A DNA stretch of 64,000 nt from Vairimorpha necatrix (taxonomy: Eukaryota): NCBI GenBank assembly GCA_036630325.1, contig CP142736.1, forward strand, positions 434,001 through 498,000, read 5' to 3'. This document shows, in pieces, positions 6,701 to 49,605 of this stretch (its first letter is position 1; each line of letters starts with the position of its first letter). Made by a program: the position numbers and the translations under genes. The notes under the pieces were generated by a model. It had not been told where the DNA came from, made no database searches, and worked only from the letters and a program-made list of their open reading frames with translations.

Positions 6701-8079
6701 AAACTAAGGAATCGAGAAGAATTTTATACAAGAAAAAAGCGAAAAGTTACTTAGACGATAACCTAGATGAACTAGGTAGAAAGAAAATAGTTGAAGGGAA
6801 GGATGAAGAATTTCTAAGGTTCATACACGAAGAAAGCGAGCATGCTGGGATAATTATATGCTACTATAACATAAAAAATTATGTGAAAATAAAGAATTTA
6901 GGGAAAAAATTAAAGAAAATCAAAGGTAATTGTATTAAATGCAAAGAAAATAAAAACAATAATAAATTTGGAAAAGAAATAATTTCAATAGCGGCCAAGG
7001 AGCCATTTGAAAGAGTTAGTTCGGATATCTACGGACCATTTGAGTTAGAAGATTATAAATGCAATACTCTCAAAGAAAAGGGTTATTTCATAACAATTAC
7101 AGACATAAAGTCAAGAATTACACATATCAGGCTTTCAACGAGTATTACAATAGGAAACATAATTAAAACGTTTAAAAAATGGATAGAAAAATACAAGCTT
7201 CCGAAGATAATCATATCAGACAATGGAAAGCAATATAGGAAGAACAAGGTAAAGGAATTTTTAGAAAGCCAAGAAATAGAGGCTAGATATATTCCGGCAT
7301 ACACACCAAGCTCTAATGGAATATCTGAGAGAATAAATCAAGTAATCTCGGAAATGTTAAGAATGAATAAATGTTTATCTATCGAAACCATCAAGAGAAA
7401 AATTTTACATAGGTTAAATGAAAATTACAATCTTAGTATAGGCTGCTCGCCGATGGCAGCTATTACTAAAAAGAATTATTTTTGCTTTGAAGAAAAGGTT
7501 GAAGAATTCAAAATTAAAGAACGAAAATTAGAAGATACTAGTACAAAAAGCATGTTAAAAACAGGAATTGAGGTGTACAAAAGGAATTTTTCTAGCGACA
7601 AATTAGACAAAAGGTTTATTGGACCCTAACAAATAGTACAGATAGGTAATAAAAATAGATGGGTAAAGCTAGACAATAACGAATGGATACATGTAAAAAA
7701 CTTAAAACTTTAGGGGAGGGCAGAATGTGATGTTATGCCTAACATCCCAATTAAGTTTTATTTGTCAAATGATTCGGGATGACCAACCATGAGGTCATAC
7801 AAACAAACAAACAAAACGAAATCATATTTTCGTGGTACAATTATTAATACTCATATGTTTGTTGTAATATTGGGAAGGACGAATACGTCATCATAAAAAA
7901 TAAAAGGAAACTTCAAAAAGAAGGGTACAGAATTTTCAGAGAGGAAAACACTAACAAGAAGGGTGAGTCTAGAAATGGGAAGACCCCATACGCCCAAAAT
8001 AAATATAATAATATAAACAACAATAAAAGTATTTTAAACAATTATTATAAATTCATAAAACTTCCTGTGATACAGGACA
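3716..8079 (+). mobile_element. Full-length Ty3/Gypsy LTR retrotransposon, lineage A (4.36 kb)
   Basis: LTRs at 3716-4074 and 7726-8079 (TGTGA...GGACA). TSD GATAG, PPT AGGGGAGGGCAGAA. Confidence 0.95.
3927..7713 (+). pseudogene. Gag-PR-RT-RNaseH-IN polyprotein with a few stops and frameshifts
   Basis: Knuckle CSLHKNNTHNSKEC, protease VLDTGA, RT YIDD, RNase H EKEL, integrase SDNG and SNGISER. Confidence 0.9.
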
Positions 8080-8084
8080 GATAG

Positions 8085-10888
8085 CTTCACAACATACGAG
8101 TCCCCAGGGCATATCACCATTATAATACCTTCGTCTAAAAACCTTCCCTTCTCATATTTATTACATCCTTTGATGTTTTCTTTCTTAGCTATCCTTACTC
8201 GTTGTCCTTCAATAAACCACTCTCTATATCTTCTAACAAATCTTTTACTGTAGTCTCCTTCTGGTCCATTTAATATCATCACTTTTCCCGTATTGTCTTT
8301 TACCGCTTCATTGGGAGTACTTCTTATACCTTCATGGTAACTATTATTATAAATTTTAAAGCTTTCCATCACTATGTCTTCAAAACTCGCCGTCTCTTTA
8401 CTCATTTTCAATATTAGCTCTCTAAGCGTTCCTATAACCCTTTCAACTCTACCATTGCTTCTATGAGACTCGACACTCACCTTATTATGGGTAATATCCA
8501 ATTTTCTACACAAATCCTTAAAGTCAACATTATCAAATTCTTTCCCATTATCCTTATTATTTCCTTCGGCCTCCTGCCATTTCTACATAATTCTCAATAA
8601 ACTGGGCCACAGAGGATCTCTTCTATCGTATAATACACATCCTCACGCTATCCTCGTGGTAATCTATCGCAACTAATACATTTTGCCCTTATCTGAAAAT
8701 CAATCAAATCTAACGCTACTTTTTCTAAATACCTGCTTGTAGCAACAAAATCACATCCTCCAGACTTTTTCGTATTGTAAATTTGACACTCTCGCATTTT
8801 TTTATCATTTTCACTATATCTTCTTTTATTCCTGGCCAATAATGATCAAACTTCACGGCATAATACATGCTTCCTAGTCCTCTGTGTCCATGCTTTTTAT
8901 GATAACGTCTCATAAGCTCATCTCTTTCTTCTATTTTAGGAATCAATGCTTTCCTTCCCAAATCAAAATTCCAGTATTCTTTACCGTCTATTGTCTCGAC
9001 GTGCTTCAACCATTTACCTTCAATTTGACGCTCACTTCTTTTTTTATATTTCTTTTCCTGGATCAACCTCCTCGTGTATCCTACTCAAATCATCCGCCAC
9101 GACCATATGTTCTGGTTTCCTGTAATCTATTTCAAAGTCAAATTCTTGGATCTTTTCAATCCATCGATTAATTCTATTATTATTAAAACACGGCTTTCTT
9201 CTTATTTCCGCCAATGCTTTGTGATCCGTTTTTACTTTAAATTTTCGTCCTCTAAACTCATACTCAAATTTCTTTATTCCCCAATACATGGCATACATTT
9301 CCTTTTCACTTATACCATATCTAGTTTCCATCGGGGTGAATTTCTTCGATGCCCATTGTACTAGCACCCACTCTTCTTTATCATTCTTCTGCATGAGTAC
9401 TGCGCCCATTCCTATATTACTCGCGTCAGTTCTTAATAAAAATTCCTTGTCATAGTTTACAATTTTCAACTTACTCATACTTCTTAACGTTTCCTTCATA
9501 TTTTCGAACTCTTTATTCAAGTCATCAGTCCAATTCAATACTTTACTTTTACCTTTCAAACTTTCAGTCATATATAATGTCTTCTCCGCATAATTCTTAA
9601 TAAATCCTCTAAACCATCCACTCAGTCCTAAAAATCTTCTTATGTCAGACACATTCGCGGCGTTGGAAACTCTAGTGCTTCGTTTTTCTTGATTTCAGAC
9701 GGCATCATATCATCTCCGTTTAGTGTAACTATTAATAACTTTACTTCCTTTCGGCAATACTGAATTTTCTTTGAATTTATCCGCATATTATTCCGTTCTA
9801 ACAATTCCATCGCTTCTACAAATAGTTTATCATGTTCTTTTCTAGTCTTAGCATGAATCACTATATCATCCATGTATACTTCTATTTTACCACCCAAATG
9901 TTTTTCAAAAATTTTATTCATAATTCTCTGCATGATCTGAGGCGAGTTTTTAAACCCCATGACCATACTATTCCATTCATATACTATCTTATCATACTCA
10001 AATGCAGTCTTATGCTTGTCTTGCTCTTCTATTTCGATTCCATAAAAAGCCTCCATAAGGTCTATAACACTGAAAAACTTCGATCCTTGCGTGTTCCTTA
10101 TGATATCCCTAATGTTCACTAATTTATAAGGGTCTTTCTCCACTAAATCATTTAATGCCATGAGATTGCTAACCAGTCTTATACTTCCATCTGGCTTAAT
10201 TAAAGCTTTAATCGGATTTCTCCATTCCGACGTCGATATTCTTATGACATTCCTTGTCTCTAACTTCTAAATATATTTTCTTAGCTCTTCTTTATGCGCT
10301 TGTGGCACCTGCTGACCTTTTCTTACAACTTTCTTACATTCTTCAGTTCTGATTCTGCATTTTTCGATTTTACAATATCTTATTTTCTCTTCTTCGTAGT
10401 CTATAACGTTCCTAAACCTCTTTCTCATGTCTTCTAATGTTAGACCGTTCTTTTCTAACTCATCATAACATCTTTTATTTCTTGTCTTCCATTCTTGAAC
10501 AATTATAACATCTCATTGTTCTTCTCTTCTCAAATATTCTTTCCTCTCTACTAATATTTCTAATCTCCTCTGCCACCACCTTTGAGACCTCCTCAATCAT
10601 CCGTAATCTCATATCCTTTTCCTCTTGTACTTTAACCAATTCCTCTAATTTGGTTTCCATAACTTTCCAATGATCTTCAATCTTAATATTCTTAACCATA
10701 AATTCTTTCAACTCATCAGTTCCAAGATCAAAAATCTCCTTCTTTACATTTTTCTCAAAAACATAATCAGACAATACTAATCCATAAACAATCCTCTTGA
10801 ACTCTTCTAATAACCTTCTGGCCTCTTGACCACAGCCAACACTTATTAACTCACGATTCGGTATCGCCCCCATGTATTTATTTATCAT
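8085..10888 (-). pseudogene. Family B mini-Gag-RT-RNaseH-IN polyprotein, fragmented, no protease
   Basis: ORFs 10475-10888, 9640-10161, 9044-9652, 8725-9066 and 8034-8513 are colinear with the ORFs at 46512-49336. Confidence 0.85.
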
Positions 10889-11726
10889 AATTGGGGATCA
10901 AAAATATAAGAATATATAACAATTTAATATAAAAAAAATTCTTTTAAAATCTTCCTTTATAATAAACTAACAATTAAAAAAAGAAATTATATTTATACAT
11001 AGAAAAATAAATAAACATTCTACAGCCGCAATAGCTTTTTTAATCAAAAAATTGCATATGAAAATATTGTTAATTAATCAGAAAAATATAGTTAAATGGA
11101 GACTTTCTTTTTATAAATGAAGTGGATTGAATATCCAAAGATATATTTTGTAAATAAATACCCCCTGACTTGGATATGTCTAACATGGTGGAGAATAAAA
11201 AAAACGAAGACATCATAAAGTTGTTAGCTAAGCTCACCCTACACATCTCGCGTAAAGATATTAAAGCTAAAATTGAACGTTTAGAAAGGAAAAGGGATTT
11301 CAAGTCCTTGTCCGATGAAGACAAAATCGAGAAAATTCTTGACAGAGCAGATGATGGATTTTTTGAGGCCCATCTACAATACGAAAAACAAAAAAAAATC
11401 TAGAAGAATGGTATATGTTGACTGGAAAGATTATATGTTGGCAAAATTTGAAAACAAAATATCAAAAAGAGATTTTTTAAAAAAGCATCAAAAGAAGGAT
11501 GAAAAATGTTTTGAATTTTTCAGAAGAATGAAAAAATTAGGCGATACTATAATTGAGGATCAAGAATTGATCTTTTTGATCAGTTTCCTTGGCTTACGTA
11601 AGATGCGGGAAGAAATTGAGAAAGCAACCGTAAGCTTTTCGGTTATTAACGATGACTTTTTAGAAATAGTAAAGAGACTAGAAGAAAAAAACGCAGCCGT
11701 ATATAGCAAGAATTCAAAAAAATCTT

Positions 11727-12839
11727 GGATCACGGGGATTTTTTACCCCAAACGTGTATCAGTGGGAATTTTTCCCTCATTGGGGGAAAAAATCCTAAAT
11801 TGTAAATTTTCAAAATTAGAAAAAGAAAAAAATTATAAATTAATTTTTAATAGAGTTAATATCTTTAAGAAGCGTTCATTCCTATTGTTAAACTTCCACA
11901 CCATTTCCTCCAAAAAATCGGACCTTTTGCTTGTCAAGACACCTTTTCTTTTTTTTATTTCACACTTTATAACATTATTAAAGGACTCAACAGCTTGAGT
12001 ATTTGTACCTGTCGCCTTGTTTATAAATTCTTTTTTGTGGCAAACTGAAGAGTGTACATATCCTAAAGAACCTAAACTGCAATAAGATTTATGCTCATCT
12101 GTCCAAATTATGCTTCCCTCTTGGACATTGTCATGGACAATGGGTATTATTGTCGAGGCCTTTTTATTCTCGATTACACAAGCATACGCTCGGGTAATCA
12201 TTGTATCGTGTTCTACAATACACAATGCATCTGTTTTATTAGAGGGTGACCTTCCCATGTGACTTTTGGCTTTGTTGTTTAACATTGTCTCGTCGATTTG
12301 CACGACCTTGCCAGGCCCTCCCAATTTGTCGTGCCTACTATCTAGCCTTCTACAGTAATCTAAGAACTTTAAAATAATTTTTTTATAAATTTTGGTGTCA
12401 ATTTGCATCTGCTCTATTATTGAGTGCTGAGTCTGGTTGGTTGACCATTTAATTAATACCTTTATTATTGTAATAAATGTCAAATTAAACCCCTGAAAAA
12501 AGCTACCCTTGCGAATAGAGACCTGCTTTTTATAACAAGTTCAACGAGCGTTCATACATACCCAAGCAATTTGGCACTTAATTTTGAAATAATTCTTTTT
12601 AACTAACAAATTATTGCAAATTTCGCAAGTTAAGCCACTAGCTAATAGGTTAGAATACATCAGAAATTCAACTAATTCCTGATCATTCATCCTAACTAAC
12701 TCGGTCTCGAACGAATCTAAACTCATAATAAGGGGTTAAAAAAATAAAAGTAAAAGTAAAAAATTTTGAAAGGATTTTTTCCCCCAAATGTATAACAGTG
12801 GGATTTTTTCCCCCAGTGGGGGAAAAATCCCACTGATCC
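11727..12839 (-). mobile_element. Merlin transposon (one nonsense codon at 12541)
   Basis: GGATCA..TGATCC termini and 8-bp TSD AAAATCTT. VQIDET, WTDEH and NTQAVES motifs. Near-identical to 39828-40940. Confidence 0.93.
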
Positions 12840-15800
12840 AAAATCTTTGATGGAAAGGAAATTTAAAAAAGAAGTGAATAATTTTGAAAATGTTGAAGAA
12901 ATAATTAAAGATATTACGTAGATATAAAAAATATTAAATTTAGAACAATTTTTGATACTGGTTCAGAGCTAAGTTTCATTACACTTAAAATTTCAAAGAA
13001 AGTAAAAGAGAGGATGTTTAAACTAAAGGAACCAATCACTCTATATACCTGTCTATTGGAAGAATTTAAAATAAAAGAATATGTATGGTTAGATTTCAAC
13101 TACAAAGGAAATTCGTCCAGAGAAAAATTTTATATATTACCTAAAAGAACAGACGCAACAATCATCATAGGAAGAAATTGAATGTCTCGGAGACAACAAA
13201 AAGTTGAAAAATCGGATATCGGCAACTATAAGTGTCAATTGATTTAGAGTTTTCCTTCATCCAAATTGGGGGTTTATAAAATTTAAAAATAAAAATCAAC
13301 ATCCCCCTTTTTAAAACATATCGTCAACTATTAATTTAAGCTGTGCAGCATGCCTTTTAAATCTTCTACAACCAACATCAATTCAGTAAGTGTTATTATC
13401 AAGCTAGTCAACTACCATCTCCGTTTAAGCACTTTGGAGCTCCTTTTTTATTTATGCCTTTGTTCCTTATCATCACTATATCCCCCTTTTCAAAATTGTA
13501 TTCCATAGGTTTCCTTTCATGCTTCGTTTTAAATTTTAGTATTTGCAGTAGTTGCGTTTTTTTCAATTTCTCAGCATTTTCTTCATTACATGCTTCTGTT
13601 GGTGTCATTATAATTCCCGTGTAGAATGTGGTGTTGTATACGTGTAAGGCACGTGCTAATCTTTGTATCAGTAGTTTTCCGGTAATATTTTTATAAATAA
13701 GATCCTGTAAAGTCCTGTTAAAACGCTCTACCCGTCCATTTGATTGATGATGGAATGGTGTGGTATAATAAAGACTAATATTCTTGCCGGCACATAAATT
13801 TTTAACTGCATTTTCCAAATTTTTCTTCGATTGGTCGATAATTGATGTTTTTATCTTTTACTTTTCATTGATCTCTTTAATAAATTCTGCGACTCTTGAG
13901 GTTTACCGCGATTTAATTATCTTAGCAAATCTGTATCTTGTAAAATAGTCAATTCCGGTGATTATGTATTGGTTATTAATGGGCCCAACAATATCAATGG
14001 CAACCTTCTCTCCGTTCTCGTATGCTGTTACGTATAGATATCTTCTGTCCTTTTTTGGATTATATTTTGCACAAATAGTGCATCTTTTGATAGCCTTTCT
14101 TATCATCTCTTCCGCGTTTTTTACCTTAAATCCCTTTTTTTCGATTTCATACTTCATAGATTGTATCCCTCTATGTAAGAGCTCTTTATAAATTTGCTCT
14201 ATCTGTTCTTCCGTGCAAACTGTTCTTTCAACTTCATTTATCGAGAGCTGTGAACTTAATTGTGCGAGAGGGCTAATTTCTGCTGAACAATTGGTAGGGT
14301 TTCGGCTTAGACAGTCTACGTGATGGTATATCCTTTCCTTTTTTATACTTTAATTTAAAACTAAAATTAGCAATTCTCTCCAACTATCTTTGTATTCTTA
14401 ACGACTTTATTTCTCCCTTTTTTAATGCCTCTAGGGCTTTATGGTCCGTTATTACTTCAAAATCAGTACCATACAAAAAGTACTTAAAATGTTCCATGCC
14501 CCATAGTATTGGAATCATTCCTTTATACTGATTCTGTATTTTATTTCCGATTCCTGCAGTCTTCTGGATGCAAAGGCTACGGCTTTATCTTCACCTTCGA
14601 ACTCTTAGAATAATATCGCAGCTATCCCACTGTTTGACGCATCAGTCTCTAATTTAAATCGCCTATTAAAATCTGGTTGTGCCAATTCCGTGCTATGTTT
14701 AAGTGAATTTATGAGGGCTAGGAATGCATTGTTTTCTGCTTCTCTCCAGTAAAACGTCTTATCACCCTTTAACAAATCATAAAAAGGTTTGCCTATTAAT
14801 GCACAATTGATGATGAATTTTCTATAGTAATTTAACAGCCCTAGGAATTCCTGTACTTTCTTCTTATCTTTCGGAGGCTCTAGATCTTCGAGCGCCTGTG
14901 TTCGTTTCACACAAGGTAGTACTTTATTATAGGTTATTTTTTCGCCCAAAAATTTCATTTCCTCTTTTTTGACTATTGATTTTTCCATATTGATATTCAT
15001 ATTATATTCTTTAAGTATATCTGTAACTCTTTTATATGCCTCGTCATGTTCTATCTCATTCCTTCAAAAAACTAGAATGTCGTCCACATAGCAATAACAC
15101 GACTTACCGAGCTCACTATTCAGAACATGATCCATATATCGTTGAAAAATAGCTGGGCTATTTTTTATATCCTTGTGGCATTTCTTGTCCACTCATATAG
15201 CACATGCTTGTATCGGAATGCTATTTTGTGTCTATCTCTAACACTTAATGGTATCTGAAAAAATCCGAGTTTTAGGTCGATCGTAGAAAAAACTTCATAT
15301 CTCTTAAATTGCATAATATTTCATCGATATTTGGTAATGAATAACGATCAGTTCGACAAGGTTGTTCAATGATACCAAATTAGTCGTTATTCTAACCTTT
15401 CCATCCGGCTTTATTACTGGTCGAAGATTATTTAACCAGGAGGAATTCGACTTACATATGTATCCTTTCTCGATGAGTGTCATTATAGATTTATACACTT
15501 CAACTTCTAGCTTTTTTTGGTAAAAGTAATACCTTCCCCACAACCTTACATCCTTCATTTGTTTTTATTTCACAAATATATTTAAATTCATCTTTGTTCA
15601 TCACCTTCTTTATCGTGTTTACTCCTATCAGAATTTTCTCAGATTTTACCTTTGAGAGAGCATAGAAATCGGCCGTACAATTAAAGTTTTTATATCTAAA
15701 TTCTAGTGAAACATATTGTTTGATACTGAATTGTTCTTCCAAACAGGTCCAGAATTTTTTTTATCTCATTCAATTCTTTAGGTATGAGTGATAGTCTTTG

Positions 15801-16337
15801 TATCACTGAGTAACTAATAAAGTTATATTTTGCACCAGTGTCAAATAAAACTGCAACTTTTTCGTCTTTAACATAGATAAAACTCTCTTTATTTAAAATT
15901 TCTGCAATATCTTCGCTTATCTCATTGATTCTCCTAGATCTATCGGTATCTTTTCCGTTATTTCTCACATTTTCAGGATACTTTCGACATGACCTAGCGA
16001 AATGACCCCATCGTCCGCATTTATAACATCCTGTAGACCTAGAATTTTCGTCGATTTTAAAGCAGTTAATTTTGCTAAAAGAGAATTTGGGTTATTCTTC
16101 TTGTCTACTTGTTTCTCTTTTTTCTTTTCTTCTTCCATGCAATGAATTTCTCTGAAGTTCCCGAGCTCCTATTGATTTAACTGACCATAGATATTTTTTT
16201 ATTTCGCTAAATCTGCATTTAGTCCTTCTGCGATGATGTCTCAATATCTAAATCTCTCAACTTGTAGATACTAGCCTTTTCTTTTACCCTTTCTATAAAG
16301 GCTACGATGCCTTCGTTCTCATCCTGGTTTACAGGGG

Positions 16338-16473
16338 TTTGCATTTTTTGCGTCCAACTTTTGCATTTTTTTTAGTCCAACTTTTGCATTTTTTTTAGTC
16401 CAACTTTTGCATTTTTATAGTCCAACTTTTGCATTTTATAGTCCAACTTTTGCATTTTTATAGTCCAACTTTT
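16338..16473. repeat. Tandem array of about six 20-22-bp units (TTTTGCATTTTTTAGTCCAAC)
   Basis: Read directly. The unit matches the inner part of the Tc1-like TIR. No spacers. Confidence 0.9.
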
Positions 16474-16932
16474 GAAAAAAAATAACAAAAAACCCAGATT
16501 TTGATACAATGAACAAAAATAGAATTATGTGTAAATAATATACAACCTCATTTAATTAGATAAACTCGTTTTTCTGCCTTGCCATTTCTAGCCATCTTAC
16601 CATATTAGTGTAGAATCCATCACACGAAAGGCTAAAATCATTGTTCAGCACTTGCTCCAAATCCGTTTCTACTGTATTATTTGAGTTTCGTATAGCACAA
16701 AACCTCGATTTTATCATAGAAAAAAATTCTTCAATGGGATTAAGTTGTGGGGAATACGGAGGCAAAAAAACATAAGATATGCCCAATTCTCTTAGCTTAT
16801 CCAAAACTTCTCTTGAATGATGAAATTTAGCATTATCCATTATTAAACTTTTTTGAGGATTTGTTTGGAAAAAATCTACAAGATGCCTTTCAATAAATTC
16901 GACGAATAGAGCAGAATTATATGCGCCCCTTT

Positions 16933-18007
16933 GGCTAAAATCAGCATTAGTGTAAAAAAAATGGGGGGGGGGTCAAAATTTTTAAAAAATTGCCCCTTTT
17001 TTAAAAAAAGGAAGGGAAGAGAAAACTTCAGGAAAATCCTAAAATGCAATTAAGATGTAGAAATGCATAAAAATTAACATTAAAATAAATAAATATATCA
17101 AAAACATAATTTTTATAATGCTTCGAAGGTATTTTGATTCTCATTTCTCCTAATCATATAGAGGGTCAAATATATCTCAGTTAGTTCATATGTCCTACAC
17201 CTATTGGGTATAGAGGCTTTTAAAGACCTCCAATTCCCTTCGATGGTGTTTGTATGAACACCCGTCTCACTGTCTCTAAAAATTTGACTGTGATTCACAG
17301 TCCTATGGTCCGCATAATGATTTTTTAACGTTGAATACGCCCTCCACATATCCGAATAAATGACGGATTCAAAATTTACATGCTTAAATAAAATGGGGAG
17401 CAATGTTTCCTTGTTTCTTTTTTTATTATTTGAAAGATTATCTTCTTTTCGGCTGTCCTTTCTACCATCCCGAAACACCAAAAACCTTTAACCAATCTTC
17501 CCCTGTGGTATTTATTCTTCCCTATTTTACTTTCATCGATCTCTACTATAATATTTCCGCCTCCAATTTGTTTTGTATTATTTATATACTTCTCGTAAAT
17601 TTTTAATTTATATAATTTTTCGAGTGTGTAACTTATATTTTGACCATTACAATCCAAAATTTTGTAAATTTGCGCTATTTTAATTCCAATTTTCCTCAGA
17701 TTAATTATTTTCAACATAAGAAGATGATCTATTTTACTATTTGAAAATAAGGTATTATTCCAAATTGAAAATCTGTGCCTGCATTTGGGAAACTTGCATC
17801 TCAAATAAGCTGTTTCGTTGGATACTCTAGACGTATTCCAACCACATTTTGCACATTTCTGCTTATATTTCTTGTTTAGCAGACGTTCGTAAAAATCTTC
17901 AATTTCTTCCTTACTCAGCATTCCCTTCCTTTTTTTAAAAAAGGGGCAATTTTTTAAAAATTTTGACCCCCCCCCCCATTTTTTTTACACTAATGCTGAT
18001 TTTAGCC
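16933..18007 (-). mobile_element. Merlin transposon with ~85-bp TIRs, one frameshift
   Basis: TIR GGCTAAAATCAGCATTAGTG, TSD GCCCCTTT. ORFs 17376-17921 and 17113-17481 carry EIDES, YSDMW and TNTIEG. Confidence 0.93.
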
Positions 18008-21000
18008 GCCCCTTTTCATTTCGTATGATATAATATTCGATTTTGAAATCACGAAAGACAACTTAAATTTTTGCCTCGATTTGCGGGGACTGTTTAATTG
18101 CTTTTTTATTTTTATAAAATAACCCAAAATGCCTTGTGGTATGGGCATTAAATCCAGTTTCATCCAAAAAAATCAAATTTTCTAGTGAATACCCCGATAT
18201 TTCCATGGCATATTCAGCTCTTTTATCAATTTTGTCCTGCGAATTACGCTCTGCAGGAATTAGAGATAGTCTTTTTCTTGTAATATTGAGATATTTAAAC
18301 TTTCGAGAAATAGTAGACAGAGACATTGAAACATTTCCTAAAGTATCTAGTTCTTCTTTGATTTCACCAAGAGTCTTGTCATTACTACGTACAATTATGT
18401 TTTTTGGCACAAGGTCGGATGGCTTTAATACACTAGGAGATGATACTTTGATACGATTTATTGTACTTGTAGAACAAATGGATTCTCCCTCTAACATTTT
18501 CCTATGTATCCTCCAAACTGTTTTATACCTTAAATCTAATGTAGTAGCTATATCTTTTAATGTCAAGTTTTCGTTTTTTATATGTTTTTCAATAAGTTTT
18601 AAGACATCTGGAGTGACTGTAGATCTTGGTTTTCTAGGCATTAGGGGAGTTTTTTTCAAAAAAAAGGCCTTCGGAAATAAAAAAAAAATGGACTATAAAA
18701 ATGCAAACCCCTGTAATCGGTATATCTCCTCTAGGGAAATCTCTTTCTTACCAAATACTTTTTTGGCGGACTCTAACCATTTTTTCATACAAAAGAACGC
18801 ACTTTCTTCGCGACTCTAAAAACTTCCCATGCCATTCTATAATGGCGTACCCTGCTCTTTCTATGATTTACTCAATTTTATCTTCATCGTTCATGTTGAT
18901 GAAGAAAGACAGCATTCCAAGTCTCTTACATTCTTTAAGTAGGTTTTCTTTTGTTATAACCATGTTTATGGGCTTTGATGTCCCATTCTCCACCATGTCA
19001 ATTGATTTAGTGTTTTCCTTCATCCAAATTGGGGGTTTATAAAATTTAAAAAAAATATCAACAATAAGGAAGAATTTTAAAAGCTGTGTGTATGTATATC
19101 AGAAGGTATATAGGATTTTGAATGTAGAATTGAAACCGAAAAAGGAAAAAAAAGTTGTCGTAAGTTCATATAGAATTCCACAAGCTTGGGAAAGGAAAGT
19201 AGAAGTGGAAATACAAAGGTTGTTAAAAAACAACTATATTCAGGAGTCTAAATCCACTTGGTTGAATAACGTGAGACCTGTAGAGAAAAAAGATGGTAGT
19301 GTTAGTTTAACTACAAATTTAATTAAACTTAATAACATATTGGAATTAGATAGTTATATGTTACCTAGATTAGAAGAATTGATTTTTTGCTTAGGTAAAA
19401 GCAAATATTTTTCTAAAATTGATCTTAAAGAAGCATTTTTTTAGGTAAAACACGTGAAGCTGACAGAGAAAAAACAGCCTTTAGAATCAAAAAAAAACAT
19501 ATGAATATGTAAGAATGCCAAAGGGATTTAAAAATTCGCCGGCAATGTTTCAAAGAGTTATCGATAAAGTTTTAAACGAAGAAATTGGTAAGACATGCTT
19601 TGCATATGTCGATGATGTTTTGGTTTTTACAGAAACTATCGAAGAACATAACAAAGCTTTAGCCAAAGTATGCTATTTGCTTAATAAAGCAGAATTTCCG
19701 CAAATAAAGATAAAATAACAATTTTAAAAGAAGAAGTTGAATTTTTAGGTCATAAAATTCTACAACATAAATTAAGACTTCTAATAGATAAACCCGAAGG
19801 AATAGTTAATAAAAAACACCAATGAATGCAGAAGATGTTAGGAAATTTTTAGGAGTTGTTAATTATCTTAGAAAATTTTATTAGGATTTGTTAGACATCT
19901 GTAATCTGTTGGTAATATTGTTAAAGAAAAATCACCAGTTTGTGTGTGGAGAAAGCCAAGAACAGGTATTTAAGGAACTAAAAAATATTAACTTCAAAAC
20001 TATGTTTATACCAACCAGATTTATTATCTAATTTAATCTTAACGACCGATGCATCATACACTGGACTTTATGCAATACTTAGCCAAATTCGTGATGGAAT
20101 AGAACGACTAATAGCATTTGCATCAAGACAACTGAGAGATGCAGAATTAAATTATACTATTACCGAGAAAGAAATGCTTGCTTCGTTATGGGCGATGTAA
20201 CACTTTAAATATTGGTTATTTGGTAGGAAATTTACGATTTTTACAGAACACATTGCGCTAAAAGCCCCTAACCAAAAAGGTGAAATTAAATCATCACAAA
20301 TCATTAGATGGATAGAAAGGATCCAGATGTATGACTTTGGATTAAATATAAGAAACCAACCGAATTGGAACATGTTGATGCGTTATCACACCAACACAAA
20401 GTAATAAATAATATCAATCGGACCTCTCATAAAGAGTACATAGTAAAAGCCCATGAAAAACTAGTTCATAGGGGAGCCAAAGCCACTTCCGAGTACTTAT
20501 CTGAAAGTGAGCCAGATAAAAATATTAAATTGGCAGGAGTAAAAGAAACTGTTAAAGATTGTCTAAAGTGTAAAGAATATAACCCTGTAAGAATAACAGG
20601 ATATAGACAGATTGAAGCTTTTGAACCTGGAGAAAAAGTGGCTTTCGACATTATAGGTCCAATAGAAAACTCTTACATTTTTACAGCAATAGATTACTTT
20701 TCGAGATACGCTGTAGCAAAAGTATTTAAAAATAAAACAAGCACAAATTTATTAATGTTCTTGGAAATAGTTAATGAGAATTTTAAGGTGAAGACATTGG
20801 TTTCCGATGCAGCTAAAGAAAATAGTAGTGACTATATGAGAAATTGGATGATAGAAAAAAAAGATTACTCATCACAATACTTCTCCATACCATCATTGCT
20901 CAAACGGTAGAATAGAACATTTTAATAGAACGATGCGCGAAGGTGTAAACAAACAAGAGAAAACGATAAGATTATCGAAACGAGTTGAAAATGTACTTGA

Positions 21001-21907
21001 TAGTTACAACAACATTCGTCATTCAGCTACAAACTTAACACCTAAAGAGGCATTGAATCTTGAAAACCTAGAACTACTAAAAAATAGACATTTTGAAAAT
21101 AGAATTGAGAAGTACAAGGAAATGTTAAACAAACTAAATATCTAAAATTATATCTACGTGACTTTGTTCTAATTGAAGATTACATACATAAATACAAAGG
21201 ACAGCCAAAATTTTCTGCTATGGGCGAAGTTGTAGGTATACTGGCTAACGATACTTATCTAATTAATGTAAAGGTAAAGTCAGTAAAAGACACATACTTC
21301 AGTTACGTAAATTATAAAAAAAGGAGTTACATCTTTAGAGAGGGAAAGAGGGCACAAATACCTAGTCGCGGGGATGTTGTGGATTGAATTTCCAAAGATA
21401 TATTTTATAAATAAATACCCCTTAACTTGGATATGTCTAACAAAAAATATTATTTTATATACGAATATATCTTTATTTGATGTTTTTAATGTTAAAAGAT
21501 GTATGTAATTGAATTGCTACTGCTTTTCTTCTTTTTTCTACATTTATTTCTGTGTTTGAAAAAACAAAGTAACACTCTCCGGGGGTATTTTCAGGTCTCA
21601 ATCCACTTTCTGAAAGTTTTAGATTTATATTAATTTCGCCTTCTTACCTTCCGTCCATGGTGAGGTATTATAAATACCACAGATTATTTATTTTTTATTT
21701 TATCAATTTCCCCTTTTTGGAATACACCATTCGACCGGTCTATTCCAAAAATCAAATATTTATTTCCTTTTTGCCCCGACCCCCACAAAATCATGAGACA
21801 TAATGAAGATCATCGCCCTTGGAATCTACGACCAAGGAAGGGCCTCAGAGCCAGGACCAGTATCCCATTACAGATGCCCAACGAGGCTTATATCAATACA
21901 ATAAATC

Positions 21908-40940: not shown

Positions 40941-43900
40941 GAAAACTCTTGTGAAAAATTTAATTGAAAAAAATTATAATAGTATTATTCGCTACGAAAT
41001 GTTTAAAAAAAAAAGATTTCCAGAGCATTTATTTTAATTTTCTTAAATATTTTTTTTTGAGCTTCAGCCCGTTTTTCGTTTTAAGATTTTGAACATTGCC
41101 CATTTCGAACTTTATTTCAAAAAGGTTGCCGACCCCTGACGCAAACAATAAAAATAATTATAATAATAATCAACATTATATTGCAGGGAGGAGCACATAG
41201 AGTGCTATTTACCAACAGGCCGCCTCTAAGCGGAAACACCACAAATGGAAACCATGATATACCAAATATAATAAAGGTAATTTTAAATCTTTCCCCCCGA
41301 TTTCGTCTAACTTATCCTCTAACGTTTATTTAAAGGTTTTATCCGGAGAGGAATGCGAAAAGATGGAAAGGAAAATTGAGAAACAAAAAAATCTTTAAAA
41401 TACTTTCCTCAGCAACAGATACCACAGAAACAAAGTTAACAAAGGAGTTTTGCAAGTATTAACACTTAAAAAAGAAATAGCAGATTTTTGTTATATTATC
41501 ATTAAAGATAATATAATTTTATATGTTAATAAATGTTTGCAATTTATCAATGGCATCTTTTTTGTATTTAATTTCAACATTCGCCAAAAACAATATAAAA
41601 TTGTTTATTATAAAAAAGGCAATATCAGCAAAACGAAGAAAAGCCACAAAAACTTCACCAATAGAGAAAAATCATCAATAAATTCGTTTCACGCGTTAGC
41701 ATACATAACGGCTGCTTGTAAGAGAAAATTTCGTTTCTATATGATACATCTTTAGTCATAATGTGATTAGAGACTCTCTTTCGCGGGCTTTATGGAAAAC
41801 GAAAACGCCTGGCTCAAGACATCATTTAAGAACACGACTCAGATCAGCTTAAAAAATACAGCATCATGCCCGGCCCTTTTCAGATCAAATATATTTATCA
41901 TGTAAGTTTTTTTGGAAGTAAATTAACACCTCTTTCCTCTATTTCTAGATTTTGTCGTTTTAAATCATTCATATTAATTATCCTGTTTTGTTATCTCTTT
42001 AAGTTTCTTATCAAATATAATTCTTCTAGAGACAACCATCTTGTCTAAGTAGTCTCTAATGCAACAGAGTTCTTTTATCTTATCTGGGTTGTTTCTTAAT
42101 CCGATTATATTACTGTGATTTTATGTCCAACATCTCAATTGGGCAAAAAAGGTTTACATGTCAAATATCAATGACCTGCCGTCAGGTCATACAAAAAAAA
42201 AAGAAACAAAACGAAATCATATATTTCGTAGTACAATTGTAAGTATCCAAAGTTTGTTGAAATGTTTGAATTCTTAAAAACGTCATGATAAAATATAAAA
42301 ATAACTTTACAAAAGAATTGTACGTGATGTTTAAAGAAGAAACAAAGAACAGGAAGGGCGAGTGTAGAAATAGGAAGAGCCCATACGCCCGTAGAAACGA
42401 GAACAACACTTTCATAAATAAAGCTACATAAACAATTATTCCAAATTTAGGAAAATTTCTGTGATGCAGGACATAATTAATATCGCGTTCCATAAGGCAT
42501 CACAAGAGCGAGAAAGTTCAACAAAAGAAGGGTTGACATTCAAATACACGATCGATGAAATCGATTTGGCGGTAGAAAAAAGAATCTTTTTTATAAGAGA
42601 CATAAAGGACTCTACAGAAGTTGAGTTAGACAAATGGTTTGAAGATTTCAAACAAGTTAGCTAAAACAAGAAATGGGATGATAAAAAGGAAAAATGGCTT
42701 GTATAGAGTTAATAAGAGATTCAAGTAAACAATCAATCTTTTCATTTACAGATTTAGAAAAAGTTTACCCCCCAAAACAAATCCAGAGTTATTAGCAACT
42801 AAGTTACAAAATTGCAAGCAATAAAAGTTTAGGTTTATAAAGCAATATATGAGTAGCCTAAAGGCTTTAATCGACCAATATACAATAATTGAATTTCTGT
42901 CTTAAGAGAATATGAAAGAGAGCATAGAAAGAGTTTCTTTGCAGGTTTATCATTCGAGACAAGAATGAAGGTGGTCGATTTAGAAAAAAAACACGATTGA
43001 AGAGGTTATACTGCATCTTGAAACGGCAGAAGAAAACATAATGTCCTGTATAGAAGGAACTTTGCTTTATTAAATAGAATTTTTTAAAATTTTTGTAAAA
43101 TTAATGTATAAATTGATGGTGTTCTTGCTTATTTGATATTCCATAACCTTTAAAGATAAACTTCTTTTTATATTTTATGTCTTTATTTATCATAATGGGG
43201 GATAGAAATTATACAAATATATCACATCCCCCCTCAAGACGGTTAGTCTCATCCAATTTCCACATCTACCCCAAGCATACTCTTCAGGTCAGCATGTCTC
43301 TTCTTCACAAGCCTACCATTACTAAGTTTTACAATATAAGAATCTTTTCCACACTTTTCAACAATTCCCCCCGTATCCAAAAATCTTCCTTTTTTATACT
43401 TTTTAACGTCATGACCTCCAGTCACGACTTTATGATTCTTATTTTATTTGTTTGTTTGTTTATTTTATTTGTTTGTTTATATATTTTTATTATAAATATT
43501 TGTTTTTGAAAGAAGGGTAAAAAGAATGAATATGAAGAACATCAAACACCAAGAAAACAGTTTTAAGAATAAAAAGAAATTTAATAAAAGTATTTTAGAA
43601 ATATATTTAAAAAATGGGGATCTAACCCCGGTTCACCACATTTTGAATATAAAGAGAAAAATTGACTTAAAAGACGAAAAGAAGAATGAAGATGACTATT
43701 TACAAGTCAAGATAAAAATAGAAGGAACTGACATGGAATTTAAAAAGAAAATTAAGATAATAAGGAATATCGAATCATGGGACCTTTTGGCATGGTTTAA
43801 AGAATATGAAGCTATAGTTGCCCAGAACAAATGGACGAGAGAACAGAGTATTGTAATTTTAAGAAATCTAATCGTGGACGACAAGGTAAATGACAAAACT

Positions 43901-46478
43901 TTTGTATTCGATGCCGCGACAACCAAGAAGAATTCAATAAAGAAGCTCTTCAGAGTAGGAGCCAAAGACGTATTGAATGAAGCATTTAGGTTAAGACAGA
44001 TCGACTTTGTCTACATCAAGGACTATTACGATGCAATTTATGAGAAGATTAACATCTACAGCTCATTTTATGAGACAGCAAAGACGGAATTTAATCGTCA
44101 TTTAAGTGAATGTTTTAATCAAGGACTAGGAAGAAATAGTCTTTTGAAATAACTAAGCAGAATCTAGAAGAAGCATACAAGTGCTTACAAAATATCGAAA
44201 ATTCAGTCAAAAGAAATTACAAACGAGAATCTGAGAGGGTTGTTCAAGACAAGCAGGAAGTAAAGAACGAAAACCATAACTTCGGCAGCCAAAGTACAAA
44301 CACCAGGTTCGGTGTATGGGGAATGGTGTACTATACACAAGAATACCACGTATGACGCTAAAGATTGTTACCACAATAACAATCCCAGATATAATGCAAA
44401 GAATGGAGACAGGAAACTAAAAGAAAACGGGAAAAGAGAGTTAACCGAGAATTTGAAAGTGGTAACCGAGCCACTTAACACTATAAATGGAATAGAACTG
44501 AATGGAATAATTAATGAAAGAAGAATTAAATTTTTATTAGAAACAAAAGCTTCAAGAAACTTTATAAGCACGAAGCAAGTAGAAGATTTGAAATTAAAAA
44601 CGACAGAAGACGTAGCTATAACAGCAAGATTTGCTAATGAAGACACGGAGATTTGCAACGAACCCGTATTATTAAGATAGGATTAGATGATTTATGTGAA
44701 GATAAGCTAGTGAAATTTTATGTTCTCACAAATAGGAATGAAGATATTATATAGGAAACGAATTTCTAATAAGAAATCAAATGATAATAAATTATAAGGA
44801 CGGAACAATAATGTCTGGAAGAAAGAAAATGACGTTTTTAGATACATCCAACCAATGTGAGTTGGATAAAATGCTTTTTGAGAAGATACATGTTTGTAAG
44901 GAAGAAGAAAATGATATAAATAAAGCTATTGAATATTATCAGTTTCACAATGAGCAATTTAAATGTATGAAATTAGACCATCCACAGAGGTTAATATAAA
45001 AAAAAAGAATTACAGTTCTACGAAGCAAAGCCCTATAGTATAGCTATAGCATACAAAGAAAGATTAATAAAAGAACTTAGGAGATTAGAAAAAGAAAAAA
45101 TAATAGAAAGATGCAATTCACGTTTTTCAAGCCCTGCGTTTGTGATAGAAAATAAAACCAAAGACTTAAGATTGGTAATCGGCTATCGATACATTAATGA
45201 CTATATAGTCGATGAAATTTATTATAAACCACAAAATACATGACAATCTACAGCTTTTATCATGCTGTCAGTACTATTCTAAGCTGGATCTAAAAAATAG
45301 ATTCAATCAAGTAGAGCTTGATGAGGAAAGCAGGACTATTACTGGTTTCCATATATTTGGAAAACATTACCAATACAGAAGAATACCCTTTGGGATAAAA
45401 TCGGGTCCGAAACTGTTTCAAAAGATAGTTTCAAGAATTCTAGAAGAGATAAAGAATGTATTCGTCTATATAGACGTAATCGTAATATATGGAAAAGATG
45501 GAAAGGAACACGACGCAACGTTATTAGAAGTTTTAAAAGCGTTAAACAAACATCAAGTCGGAATTGCTTTTGAAAAATCAAATTTTAAGAAAGAAGAAAT
45601 TGATATATTAAGATGTATAGTAAACAAAAAAGGTATTAAGGCAAACTTGAAGTATTTAGACAAGGAAATTTTTGTGAAGACACAGCGAACCAAAAAAGAA
45701 GTGCAAAGATTATTAAGTATAATAAATTGGTTTAGGACTTTCGTACCAAACATGAGTACTAAGCTCAACAAGGTTACTAAACTTTTAGGACATACGGAAA
45801 ATAAAAGGATTGAATGGAACAACGAACAGTAAAGAGAAATAGGGAATATTTTAAAGATTATTGAAGAAAATTTAGTTTTAAAGAAATCAGATTTTACAAA
45901 GAAATTTATTTTGCAGTGCGATGCAAGCGACTTTGGAATGAGATCAGTTTTACTACAAGAACACGGACTCATCGGATGCTATTCGAAGAAATTCATAAGT
46001 TCTGAAAGTAGCTATTCGATTGTTGAAAAAGAATTATTTGCGATTGTAAAATCATTAGAGCACTTTCGCAGTCAGATCCAAGGATATTATGTAAGAATAG
46101 AAACAGATAGTAAAAATTGTGTATTCATAAACAAGAAAATATCAAGTAGACTTGAGCGATGGAAAGTAATATTAAATGAATACAATTTTGAAATAATAAA
46201 TATTGAGGGAGAAAAGAATAATGTAGCAGACCACTTATCAAGATGCTACACTGAAAGTGAAGTAGCAGATCAAAAAGAAGAATTTAAAGAAAAAATTATA
46301 CAACATTTTGCTTGTAAAAATAAAGGAAATGAAAAACTTATTGTAAAAGATAAAAAAGAAAGAATTAAAATCGATCCTAACAAAGCGAAAGAATTTATTG
46401 AGTTTATTCATGAAGTTTCGGGCCATTGCGGTCAAGTAATTTTATACTTGAATTTGAAAAACTTGTAAATGTACCTAA

Positions 46479-49400
46479 TGTTATATTCTGTAATATTATT
46501 GACCCCAATTTATGACAAATAAAGACATGGCGAACACAAGAAACAAAAAGTCAGCAAGCGAGGACTGTGGTCAGGCGATCAGAACGATATGGAATGAGTT
46601 TAGTATTTTTATGTATGGATTGAGATTGGGAGATATTTATAGTTTGGGTTCAGAGGATTTGAGAAATTTTATGGTAGAATATGTGAGGAAGGAGGACAAA
46701 ATTGAGAAAATGGAGAAAATTTTAGAAGAGATGTATAGAGTAGAGGAAGAGCAGAGAGGAGAGAAAGAGATGTTGAAGGAGATGACGGAAAGAATCGTCA
46801 GAGAGGTAAGAGGAGAGATTGAACTTCAGAGGCGTTGGGCTGTGAGAAGAAGAGTTATAAGATGTTATGAGTGTCAGAGAATGGGACATAAGAGTGATAG
46901 ATGTTATTACAAATATAAAGGAAAAGAAAATAAAAAGGAGTGCAATGCAGTCTACGAAAATGATAGTAGCGCTAGTGAGCGGAGTGGATATAGGACGACA
47001 GCAGCCGTGAAGAGGCAAAAGAAGCCTACAAGTAGAGAACTTCCAAAAAGAAAAAATGAAGTTGAGGCAGCTGGAAGCGTTTTAGGACTTGAAGAACTGA
47101 AGACAAAATATAGGAAAGTGTTTAGTTTTGGAGACGAGGTTATAGAATATTGTACGATTGATAAATGTAAGATAAAAACACAAGAGGATGTTAAAGTAGT
47201 GAAGAAAGGACAGTGCATACCTCAAGCATTAATGAAGGATACTGAAAATTTTATTAAAGGACTGGAAAAGAGGAATGTAATAAGAAGGTCGAATTCGGAA
47301 TGGAGAAATCCAATAAGAGCGTTAAGAAAGCCAGATGGCGGAATAAGGCTAGTGAGTAATTTGATGGCCTCGAATGATTTGGTTGAAAAGGATCCTTATG
47401 AGTTAGTTAATATAAGAGACATAATTAGGAATACACAGGGTTCAAAATATTTTACGGTTATTGATTTAAAGTAAGGATTTTATAGTATTGAGATCGACGA
47501 GGCAGATAAACATAAAACTGCATTTGAATTAAATAAAAGGGTTTATGAGTGAATAGTATGGTTATGGGATACAAGAACTCCCCGCAGATTTTACAAAGAA
47601 TAATGAATAAATTGTTTGAGAGACACTTGGGAAAAGGAATAGAAGTGTATATGGATGATATTGTTATACATGCAGTGACGAGAGAGAAACACGATATATT
47701 GTTAGGAGAAGCACTTAGGAAGTTGAAAGATAATAAGATGAGGATTAATATTAATGAGGTACAGTTATGCTTGAAGGAGGTAAAGCTATTGGGGGTTACA
47801 CTGAATGCTTCTGAAATAACACCGTCTGAAATAAAACAAAATGAAGCGTTAGAATTCCCAGAGCCACAAAACGTGTCGGAAGTAAGGAGATTTTTAGGAT
47901 TGACAGGATGGTTTAGGGACTTTATAAAAAATTATGCGGATTTAACGGTACATTTGACCGACAGTTTGAAGGGTAAGAACGAATGGAAATGGACAGAAAA
48001 TATGAAAGATGAATTTGTTAAGTTGAAAGAAAAGGTTAAGACATTGGGAAAGTTGAAGATAGTTAATTATGAAAAGGAGTTTTTATTGAGAACCGATGCG
48101 TCAAACCTAGGAATGGGCGCGGTATTAATGCAAAAGAATGACGAAGAGGAGTGGGTGCCGGTACAGTGGGCTTCGAAAAAGTTTACTCCCACGGAATCAA
48201 GATACGGAATAAGCGAGAAAGAGATGTATGCGGTCTACTGGGGAATCAAAAAGTTCGAATATAAATTAAGAGGTCGTAAATTTAAAGTTGAAACAGACCA
48301 TAAAGCTTTGATAGAAATCAGGAGAAAGCCACAATTCGATAATAATAGGATTAATAGGTGGATAGAGAAGATTCAAGAGTTCGATTTTACAATTGAGTAC
48401 ATGAAGCCAGATATAATGGTAGTGGCCGATGCGTTAAGTAGAGCGCCTGTTGAAGAGACTGAGAAAGAAGAAATGATAAAGAAAAGAACAGTAAAACAAA
48501 TAGAAGGAAAAGAGAAGAAACATACAGTATATGAAGATGAAAAGGAATACTGGGTCTTTGATAGTGGTATAAGAGCAGAGATACCAAAGGAAGAAAATAG
48601 TGCAAAGTTAATAATGGAATATCACGAAAATGGAGGCCCTCGTAGTGTTGGAAGTGTTTATTATGCGATGAAGAACCTTTACTATTGGTTAGGGATGAAG
48701 TCGGAGATTTATAATGAGTTATTGAAGTGTGAAAGATGTCAAATTTATAATAGGAAGAAGTTGGGCGGATGTGATTTTATTAGTACCAGTAGATATTTAG
48801 AGAAAGTAGCTTTTGATTTGATTGAATTTCGCGACGAATGTAGGTACATTTTGATTGGTGTTGATTACCATACTAGATTGATTTGGGGAGTGAGCATAAA
48901 GGAAAAAAAGGCTCAGAATGTTGCTTGGTTTATAGATAGTTTATGTAGGAACGGAAAACGACCAGAGGAATTAATAAACGATAATGGCAAGGAATTTGTT
49001 AACGAGGATCTTAGGATATTATGTAGAAGATTAGATATTGCTCACAGGAAGATAAGCATAGAAAGCCACCGTAGTAATGGACGTGTAGAGAGAGTAATAG
49101 AAACATTGAGAGAAGCTATTTTGAAAATGAGAGGCGATGATTTTGACGATAAGGTTATGAGAGCGATTGATATGTATGATAATAGTTACCACAGTGGGTT
49201 AGATTGTACACCGAAAGAGGCAATTATGGATACTAGTGGAAAAGTTATGATAGAAAATGGTCCTGAAGGAAGATACAGTAAGAAGTTTGTTAATGGAAGA
49301 GAGAAAAGTTTTACAGGAATAAGAAAGTACGAGTAGCGAAAAAAGAAAATTTGAAGGGATGTAATAAATATGAAAAAAGACGATTTATGGAGGAGGGAAA

Positions 49401-49575
49401 AATTTACGCGATTTGTGGAGGTGATTCGTATATTGTACGATTGGAAACAGGACGGCTGGTGAAGAAAAGACATTATGATTTAAAGGGGGGTTGAGTAAGT
49501 ATGAGACTACCCGTCTTGGAGGGGGATGTTATATTCTGTAATATTATTGACACTAATTTATGACAAATAAAGACA
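46479..49575 (+). mobile_element. Mini Ty3/Gypsy, family B copy 2, uninterrupted (3097 bp)
   Basis: 49-bp LTRs at 46479-46527 and 49527-49575 (2 differences). TSD CCTAA, PBS-like TGGCGAACACAAG, PPT GGAGGGGGA. Confidence 0.95.
46512..49494 (+). pseudogene. Single ~990-aa mini-Gag-RT-RNaseH-IN polyprotein (stop at 47472, frameshifts at ~47550 and ~49290)
   Basis: The CYECQRMGHKSDRC knuckle is followed by a charged linker and then RT (SEWRNPIRAL, YMDD), RNase H (LRTDAS, EKEM) and IN (FDLI, NDNG, SNGRVER). Confidence 0.9.
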
Positions 49576-49605
49576 CCTAATATAAAAGGAATTATTGAAG
49601 AAGTA

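Follow-up and report, generated by a model that had tools for sequence, protein, structure and literature searches.

A protease, a two-domain capsid and long terminal repeats (LTRs) of at least 100 bases are regarded as standard in Ty3/Gypsy retrotransposons and retroviruses. Three diverged LTR retrotransposons in the microsporidian Vairimorpha necatrix raise the question of whether such an element can lose these parts and still spread. They lie in a stretch of 64,000 nucleotides (GenBank assembly GCA_036630325.1, contig CP142736.1, positions 434,001 to 498,000 of the forward strand), hereafter the window, in whose own coordinates all positions are given and which has about 31% G+C and is dense with nested transposable elements. 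The three are copy A (46479-49575, + strand), copy B (3569-10921, - strand) and copy C (43178-54899, - strand). On balance, we take them to be dead copies of a microsporidia-specific, protease-less Ty3/Gypsy lineage of about 3.1 kb, whose protein would work as an unprocessed polyprotein and whose LTR would serve as a miniature promoter.

Three decayed copies and their relatives in other microsporidia

Copies and elements were sought across the 64-kb window, and their anatomy was read from the sequence. All three copies are bounded by TG...CA LTRs of 48-49 bp and a perfect 5-bp target-site duplication (TSD), so that the coordinates, repeats and duplications given in an earlier, sequence-only reading of the window were all borne out. 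Their proteins are only 50-72% identical to one another, with a layout common to all, which in copy A (3097 bp) runs from an N-terminal helical region and a CCHC knuckle to reverse transcriptase (RT), RNase H and integrase. The features of the copies are as follows.

46474..46478, +, copy A, left TSD (CCTAA)
46479..46527, +, copy A, 5' LTR of 49 bp (TG...CA)
46512..46862, +, copy A, N-terminal helical region (residues 1-117)
46528..46545, +, copy A, primer-binding-site-like sequence (TGGCGAAC...), within the coding frame
46863..46904, +, copy A, CCHC knuckle (CX2CX4HX4C)
46905..47079, +, copy A, polar linker, predicted disordered, without a protease
47080..48397, +, copy A, RT and RNase H, broken by a TAA stop (47472-47474) and a frameshift near 47550
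48599..49494, +, copy A, integrase: zinc-binding part 48599-48754, catalytic core 48812-49048, then the C-terminal tail
49505..49526, +, copy A, polypurine tract (PPT, 49518-49526) and the block upstream of it (GACTA[AC]CCGTCTTG, common to A, B and C)
49527..49575, +, copy A, 3' LTR of 49 bp, 2 mismatches against the 5' LTR
49576..49580, +, copy A, right TSD (CCTAA)
3569..10921, -, copy B, LTRs 10873-10921 and 3569-3617 (identical 49-mers)
10922-10926 and 3564-3568, -, copy B, TSD (TAAAT)
10888 to about 8082, then 3715 to 3618, -, copy B, coding region, much decayed and split by an element at 3716-8079
43178..54899, -, copy C, LTRs 54852-54899 (48 bp) and 43178-43226 (49 bp)
54900-54904 and 43173-43177, -, copy C, TSD (TAAAA)
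54866 to about 51915, with a tail at 43340 to 43227, -, copy C, coding region, heavily decayed

The first 25 nucleotides of the copy A LTR have 2 matches in the window against 0.00 expected from shuffled sequence, and the 16-nucleotide motif at the LTR end, ATGAYAAATAAAKACA (up to one mismatch), has 6 matches against 0.07 expected, all six being the six LTRs. Since these counts far exceed the shuffle expectation, pairing of the LTRs by chance is excluded. In each copy, the sequence immediately 3' of the 5' LTR, at the position of the primer-binding site (PBS), begins with TGG, and GGAGGGGG(G)A lies immediately 5' of the 3' LTR, where the purine tract of copy A reads GGAGGGGGA. The full flank of the 3' LTR, GACTA[AC]CCGTCTTG(G)AGGGGG(G)A, comprises the PPT with a conserved block upstream. 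No transfer RNA gene lies in the window, and inspection by eye alone revealed no complementarity between LTR and primer site of the kind expected for self-priming.

The 13-14 nucleotides ahead of the PPT are nearly identical in A, B and C (49505-49526; 3618-3639 and 43227-43248, both on the - strand). In two relatives from the protein database this block lies at the end of the protein, translated as ...ETTRL... at the C-terminus of P0018, while P0013 ends in ...RLPSGGG.... The block is probably a cis-acting extension of the PPT.

The sequence-only reading had given each copy a single open reading frame (ORF), which does not hold. Copy A spans residues 1-1005 of its nearest intact relative, a protein of 1017 aa, and carries one in-frame stop (the TAA, a Glu in the relative) and two frameshifts, the second near 49297-49318 in the integrase region, before its terminal stop (TGA, 49492-49494). 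Measured in the same way against their nearest intact relatives, copy B has at least nine stops and several frameshifts and copy C at least 20 stops. All three are dead, yet each is full length. The knuckle had correctly been called damaged in two of them: the motif is whole in A, but in B its His is gone and in C it contains a stop codon.

Intact relatives exist elsewhere. Protein searches with the first 320 aa of copy A, and then with its best match, P0001, returned 107 proteins at E <= 1e-10. The top 48 clusters (E <= 2e-136, at least 38% identity) are set off sharply by score, 475 bits at their lower end as against 308 bits at most among the 59 other proteins, which are mostly larger (594-1769 aa) and for 13 of which a protease family is listed. 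Named sources of the matches are Vairimorpha necatrix, Nosema granulosis and Enteropsectra breve, and one match filed under a Clostridium metagenome-assembled genome presumably comes from a contaminating contig. Of the 48 clusters, 30 have a length of at least 930 aa, and for 24 of these 30 the longest example lies on a contig of only 3.0-3.8 kb; P0001 itself (1017 aa, 3054 nt) comes from a contig of 3141 nt. The compact layout thus holds for intact elements in other hosts.

The clade so defined covers several microsporidian genera at 35-60% identity, with intact members outside the window, in agreement with the earlier proposal of a long-lived lineage. Its members share one layout, a single polyprotein of about 1000 aa with a helical N-terminus, a CCHC knuckle, a disordered linker and RT-RNase H-integrase; the Pfam domain order, in pieces of the window and in clade members alike, is RVT_1, RT_RNaseH, Integrase_H2C2, rve. 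In an alignment of 27 full-length members, the RT is 52% and the RNase H 61% identical, whereas the N-terminal helical part (99-231 aa, median 134) has a mean pairwise identity of 18% and the linker between knuckle and RT (16-105 aa, median 45) one of 14%, with no conserved motif. The spacer between RNase H and integrase is also variable (26-93 aa). The CX2CX4HX4C knuckle is found in 37 of the 48 proteins of the clade, and of the 11 without it at least 6 are truncated at the N-terminus; residues C118, C121, H126 and C131 of the knuckle are nearly invariant, and 21 of the 34 sequences aligned match zf-CCHC.

The primer-site position is translated in all three copies (46528-46545; 10855-10872 and 54834-54851, both on the - strand), and the first residues of the polyprotein track the primer-site type, MANTRNK... 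accompanying TGGCGAAC and MGAIPNRE... accompanying TGGGG(G)CGATACC. Two primer-site types are thus seen, TGGCGAAC... and TGGGG(G)CGATACCGAATCG. As the N-termini of P0001-P0048 fall into a few types linked to the primer site, the pattern suggests that primers were switched several times in the history of the clade.

Searches beyond the protein database added little. A metagenome scan with the 320-aa query alignment gave no confirmed locus, and a second gave three (L001-L003) that are rearranged or decayed, show no LTR pair at the settings used and were not used here. Two of them (L001:1-3271 and L002:1000-4143) carry one and the same clade member in rearranged form, with a fragment of RNase H directly upstream of the N-terminal region. 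With the N-terminal 200 aa, phmmer found only three matches among 1.84 billion representative proteins, one a fragment of 87% identity and two at E 1.5e-4, none of them tied to protease-bearing proteins. A protein atlas search with residues 1-215 of P0001 reached a best score of 0.81, below the level counted as more than a lead; that listing included retroelement Gag- and CCHC-type clusters.

Absence of a protease and the fold of the N-terminal region

Within the window, 100 stop-to-stop ORF pieces were compared with Pfam. The pieces of A, B and C gave no protease match and contain no D[ST]G motif, while five retropepsin-matching pieces were found in the same scan, all in neighbouring elements.

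4235-5338, retropepsin-matching piece of a neighbouring element
12909-13178, retropepsin-matching piece of a neighbouring element
15699-16091, retropepsin-matching piece of a neighbouring element
33042-33578, retropepsin-matching piece of a neighbouring element
44264-44677, retropepsin-matching piece of a neighbouring element

Across the clade, a protease family appears in the precomputed Pfam lists of 0 of the 48 clusters, and a fresh scan at E <= 0.5 (RVP, RVP_2, Asp_protease, Asp_protease_2, gag-asp_proteas and Peptidase_A2B) found one in 0 of the 27 full-length members. As a control, the more distant Gypsy polyproteins were scanned at E <= 0.01; a protease family was found in 18 of 33, and among the 25 in which RVT_1 is preceded by at least 290 aa the count is likewise 18. 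A miss by Pfam in any one protein is therefore weak evidence, and the case stands on the number of diverged members and on the want of room. A retropepsin is about 90-100 aa long, so that the shorter linkers, which go down to 16 aa, cannot hold one. The motif D[ST]G occurs upstream of the RT in only 2 of the 48 proteins, at unrelated positions. Weak Peptidase_A17 matches in 4 of the 27 members (5 of 34 in the wider alignment), at residues 483-615, were rejected as protease candidates, as they overlie RT-RNase H and fall below the curated cut-off.

Profile comparison gives the same picture. When the clade was aligned with 13 protease-bearing Gypsy polyproteins by hhalign, a single hit was obtained (probability 100%) in which clade columns 201-993 correspond to template columns 459-1334, starting just past the template protease and spanning RT, RNase H and integrase, including the C-terminus of the last. 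The clade shows no similarity (probability 0.2%) to the Gag-protease ORF of N1, a more distant Gypsy neighbour in the window, and against the knuckle-plus-protease piece of N2, a closer neighbour, the knuckle alone was aligned. We conclude that the clade is without a recognizable retropepsin, and the earlier statement that there is neither a protease motif nor room for one between knuckle and RT stands for the clade as a whole.

What the N-terminal region contains in place of an ordinary Gag was approached by modelling the first 320 aa of copy A with AlphaFold2 from a 34-row alignment. The model predicts helices at residues 18-39, 48-57 and 64-114, the last of 51 residues and with a predicted local distance difference test score (pLDDT) near 90, followed by the knuckle at 118-131, two stretches of pLDDT <50 (143-157 and 174-189) and the RT fingers from about residue 193. 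A Foldseek search of the PDB gave RT matches only, none at E <= 0.001, with the Ty3 RT first (4ol8, E 5.5e-3). In a wide structural search, residues 10-128 matched generic helical hairpins and three-helix bundles (Z <= 6.4), which are common arrangements; a retroviral capsid is not among the best 50 structural matches listed, which, by the tool's own account, does not show that it is absent. Of the 27 full-length members, none (0/27) matched a Pfam family for Gag or capsid. The profile and structure checks thus return helices and a disordered linker, and in the model there is no sign of a two-domain capsid, short of proof of its absence. A complex prediction for two copies of residues 1-140 scored 0.02.

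Protease-bearing sister elements and nested insertions

The origin of the protease-less state was addressed with a tree of the RT-RNase H region, comprising 101 rows: nine window elements, with X at their breaks, and 92 of the 107 database proteins, the 15 others covering <330 of the 424 profile positions (quick IQ-TREE search, LG+G4). Forty-nine protease-less rows fall on one side of a branch with a Shimodaira-Hasegawa-like approximate likelihood ratio test (SH-aLRT) support of 85, and a core of 47 rows is supported at 100. The nearest relative of copy A is P0001 (79% identity), and those of B and C are two different V. necatrix proteins (82% and 70%, respectively). The sister branch consists of two further elements of the window, N2 and N3 (support 98 for the pair).

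13233..19063, -, sister element N2, LTRs of 68/69 bp (19063-18996 and 13301-13233), TSD CTTAT
11118..21442, +, sister element N3, LTRs of 68 bp (11118-11185 and 21375-21442), flanks ATAAA/AAAAA, split by N2

N2 and N3 are built like the protease-less clade in that they have a micro-LTR with TATA, CCC and ATG, a reading frame that continues across the PBS, an N-terminus that is small and charged, a knuckle and RT-RNase H-integrase; unlike it, they keep a retropepsin between knuckle and RT. In N2, the ATG within the LTR is preceded by TATAAA and CCCCC, and the PBS-like TGGTGGAGAAT lies directly 3' of the LTR; the protein has a small charged N-terminus and a CCHC knuckle, then the retropepsin ...LFDTGAKYNFIS... 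(FDTGA). N3 has the same LTR design, with an ATG within the LTR and the same TGGTGGAGAAT after it, and a retropepsin ...IFDTGSELSFIT...IIGRN (FDTGS) at 12909-13178. The earlier observation of DTG[AS] in neighbouring families is thus confirmed, and the tree it called for places those families as the sister group. It had tied the small Gag and micro-LTR to the protease-less lineage; both are present there, and both, like the ORF start within the LTR, also occur in N2 and N3.

Four features that N2 and N3 share with the clade are therefore older than the protease loss: a micro-LTR, an ORF that begins within it, a translated primer site and a small Gag. On this distribution, protease loss is read as a derived feature of the clade that followed the compaction of LTR and Gag. 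It would have taken place in the ancestor of the clade, most simply by an in-frame deletion between knuckle and RT, with diversification across genera thereafter. A protein search with a piece of N2 gave one match, at 37% identity, and no intact relative of the sister family was found in it.

N2 holds nested DNA transposons. Inside it, at 16345-16474, are at least five tandem units of 21-23 bp, each of which, on the element strand, has TATAAAA followed by ATG and reads MQKLDYK repeatedly, resembling a repeated mini-promoter with its start codon.

Larger Gypsy elements are nested with the three copies. The coding region of copy B is split near codon 1000 by a Gypsy element of 4.36 kb (3716-8079, +), which has LTRs of about 364 bp and the duplication GATAG, and that of copy C near codon 973 by a related one (about 43412-51914, +; LTRs of at least 225 bp). 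The element inside copy C itself holds copy A and an ISXO2-like transposase gene, and from this nesting the order of insertion follows: copy C, then the Gypsy element, then copy A. The two insertion sites, no more than about 30 codons apart, lie towards the 3' end of the region that encodes the integrase, and both inserted elements are oriented opposite to the element that they interrupt; with two events only, the matching sites may reflect chance or a target preference. In N1 and N6, the more distant Gypsy neighbours, the LTRs measure 225-364 bp and the Gag is larger.

In addition, an ISXO2-like transposase domain (DDE_Tnp_IS1595) is found in six ORF pieces, which marks this DNA transposon family as abundant in the eukaryotic window, and a DDE_3 (Tc1/mariner-type) piece is also present.

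550-999, -, DDE_Tnp_IS1595 piece
11836-12540, -, DDE_Tnp_IS1595 piece
17116-17487, -, DDE_Tnp_IS1595 piece
21807-22862, +, DDE_Tnp_IS1595 piece
39106-39399, +, DDE_Tnp_IS1595 piece
49795-50655, -, DDE_Tnp_IS1595 piece
16559-16972, -, DDE_3 piece

Proposed replication of a protease-less polyprotein

How such an element might be expressed is suggested by the contents of its LTR. In copy A, the first ATG (46512) is preceded within the 5' LTR by TATA at -30 and CCCC at -9/-8, and AATAAA occupies LTR positions 40-45. All three copies follow this plan, with TATA at -30 or -27 and CCC between -9 and -6 from an ATG at LTR position 33/34, and AATAAA from position 39/40; the ORF then crosses the PBS position and ends about 30 nt before the PPT. 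For Nosema ceranae genes, the passages on promoters in Cornman 2009 (PMC2685015) give a TATA peak near -27 and an enrichment of CCC at -10 to -3 from the start codon. Since this spacing fits, the LTR layout resembles a host core promoter with start codon and poly(A) signal. The LTR would then act as a complete host-style mini-promoter and terminator, with an R region of about 20 nt at most and a U5 of almost nil. In Anncaliia algerae, according to the passages considered in Parisot 2014 (PMC4202319), a Pol polyprotein was detected by stable-isotope amino-acid labelling of cultured cells (SILAC), and a microsporidian regulation signal lies in the promoter of that element. These data, although from a different element, fit the mini-promoter reading.

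As there is a single ORF and no protease, the Gag-like and the Pol functions would come in a 1:1 ratio on one chain. In the most likely reading the polyprotein acts unprocessed: the N-terminal helices and the knuckle would bind and chaperone the element's own RNA, and RT and integrase would act while fused, as a ribonucleoprotein rather than within a matured capsid particle. Taken to its full extent, this would describe an autonomous lineage that needs neither a protease of its own nor a capsid shell and lives on one protein of about 118 kDa that would bind, reverse-transcribe and integrate its own RNA copy, a translated primer site and an LTR of 48-49 bp that would supply promoter, start codon and poly(A) signal, a claim that we put forward tentatively.

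Several points weigh against this account. The function of the clade is read from sequence and models, the copies in the window are all dead, and the primer site and the RNA ends are putative. AATAAA lies only 5-10 nt from the end of the LTR, and ordinary eukaryotic spacing would put cleavage outside it. Confidence in the AlphaFold2 model is modest (mean pLDDT 66.8, predicted template-modelling score 0.33), and the tree came from a quick search, with a support of only 85 for the whole clade. In addition, Pfam missed the protease in 7 of the 25 distant Gypsy polyproteins that have room for one, and Gypsy families that bear a protease share the window, so that a protease could be supplied in trans.

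That last point defines an alternative in which the elements are semi-autonomous, with their own RT, RNase H and integrase and with a protease, and perhaps a capsid, borrowed from a co-resident Gypsy element (N2/N3 or N1/N6). Protease-bearing Gypsy elements of at least two clades do lie within the same 64 kb, nested with the three copies, and the Ty3/Gypsy elements and retroviruses that have been studied require processing by a protease for their activity. However, a borrowed protease would meet a linker without any conserved site between knuckle and RT, the small N-terminus bears no resemblance to the N1 Gag-protease, and persistence across genera at 35-60% identity would demand a compatible helper in every host; we regard supply in trans as unlikely. 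Cleavage by a host protease seems more doubtful. The disordered, K/E/R/S-rich linkers between knuckle and RT and the variable 26-93-aa stretch between RNase H and integrase would offer it places to cut, but there is no evidence of cleavage, and the linkers carry no conserved motif.

Two further explanations deny that the protease is missing or that its loss is old. A cryptic protease, too diverged or of another class, could draw on the seven Pfam misses just mentioned and on the Peptidase_A17 matches, which sit on RT-RNase H below the cut-off; every segment past the linker, however, aligns to the RT, RNase H or integrase of ordinary Gypsy elements, and the linker itself is predicted to be disordered and can be as short as 16 aa, so that this explanation is nearly excluded. 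The idea that A, B and C arose recently by internal deletion from a full-length element with the same LTRs is refuted. Nothing was found in its favour: the six matches to the LTR motif in the window all belong to the compact copies, which keep the same layout at a protein identity of only 50-72%, and 48 of 48 clusters from several genera are protease-less, on a tree branch common to the clade. The full-length genomic copies that the sequence-only reading had named as fatal to its proposal were thus not seen in the window.

Compared with known systems, the protease-less lineage remains recognizably Ty3/Gypsy (Metaviridae). It has the LTRs and TSDs, the pol gene order, an RT that groups with Gypsy and a CCHC knuckle, and lacks the retropepsin. 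With Ty3 of Saccharomyces cerevisiae it shares TG...CA LTRs, a 5-bp TSD, RT-RNase H-integrase and CCHC; Ty3, however, has LTRs of 340 bp, a two-domain capsid, a protease and maturation by processing, whereas no capsid fold or protease was found in the clade. Long interspersed nuclear elements (LINEs), DIRS and Ngaro work without a protease, and also without a DDE integrase and the LTR/PBS/PPT scheme. They are possible functional analogues, as cases of an unprocessed multidomain protein acting on its own RNA, although the clade has an rve DDE integrase and ordinary direct LTRs where DIRS and Ngaro have a tyrosine recombinase and split or inverted repeats. Terminal-repeat retrotransposons in miniature (TRIM) and large retrotransposon derivatives (LARD) are small and miss part of the gene set, and encode no enzymes, whereas the clade encodes RT, RNase H and integrase.

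Parisot et al. 2014 (PMC4202319) described Ty3/Gypsy groups 1-3, which are specific to microsporidia and have a single polyprotein, and the clade resembles them in both respects. The main text of that paper has 0 occurrences of "protease" or "aspart", and the passages considered give no LTR lengths. According to PMC2474625, which summarizes Xu et al. 2006, coding sequence for Gag, protease, RT, RNase H and integrase is present in nearly all elements of Nosema bombycis; compared by description rather than by sequence, the clade differs from these Nbr elements in having no protease and LTRs of 48-49 bp. Our literature searches found no description of protease-less or micro-LTR Gypsy elements in microsporidia, the coverage being such that Xu 2006 and the supplements of Parisot, which might bear on this, fell outside it. 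The new point here is a micro-LTR sister group that retains the protease and so gives the order of loss.

N2 and N3 place the compaction of LTR and Gag before the loss of the protease in the sequence of events. Common LTR finders work with a minimum LTR length of about 100 bp, and protease-less elements with LTRs below 50 bp would be missed or mis-scored in the annotation of microsporidian genomes. Replication as an unprocessed polyprotein becomes directly testable with a construct of 3.1 kb. If it is true that neither protease nor capsid is needed, a Ty3/Gypsy element can lose both and still spread, and the minimum that an LTR retroelement requires would be set lower than before by this clade.

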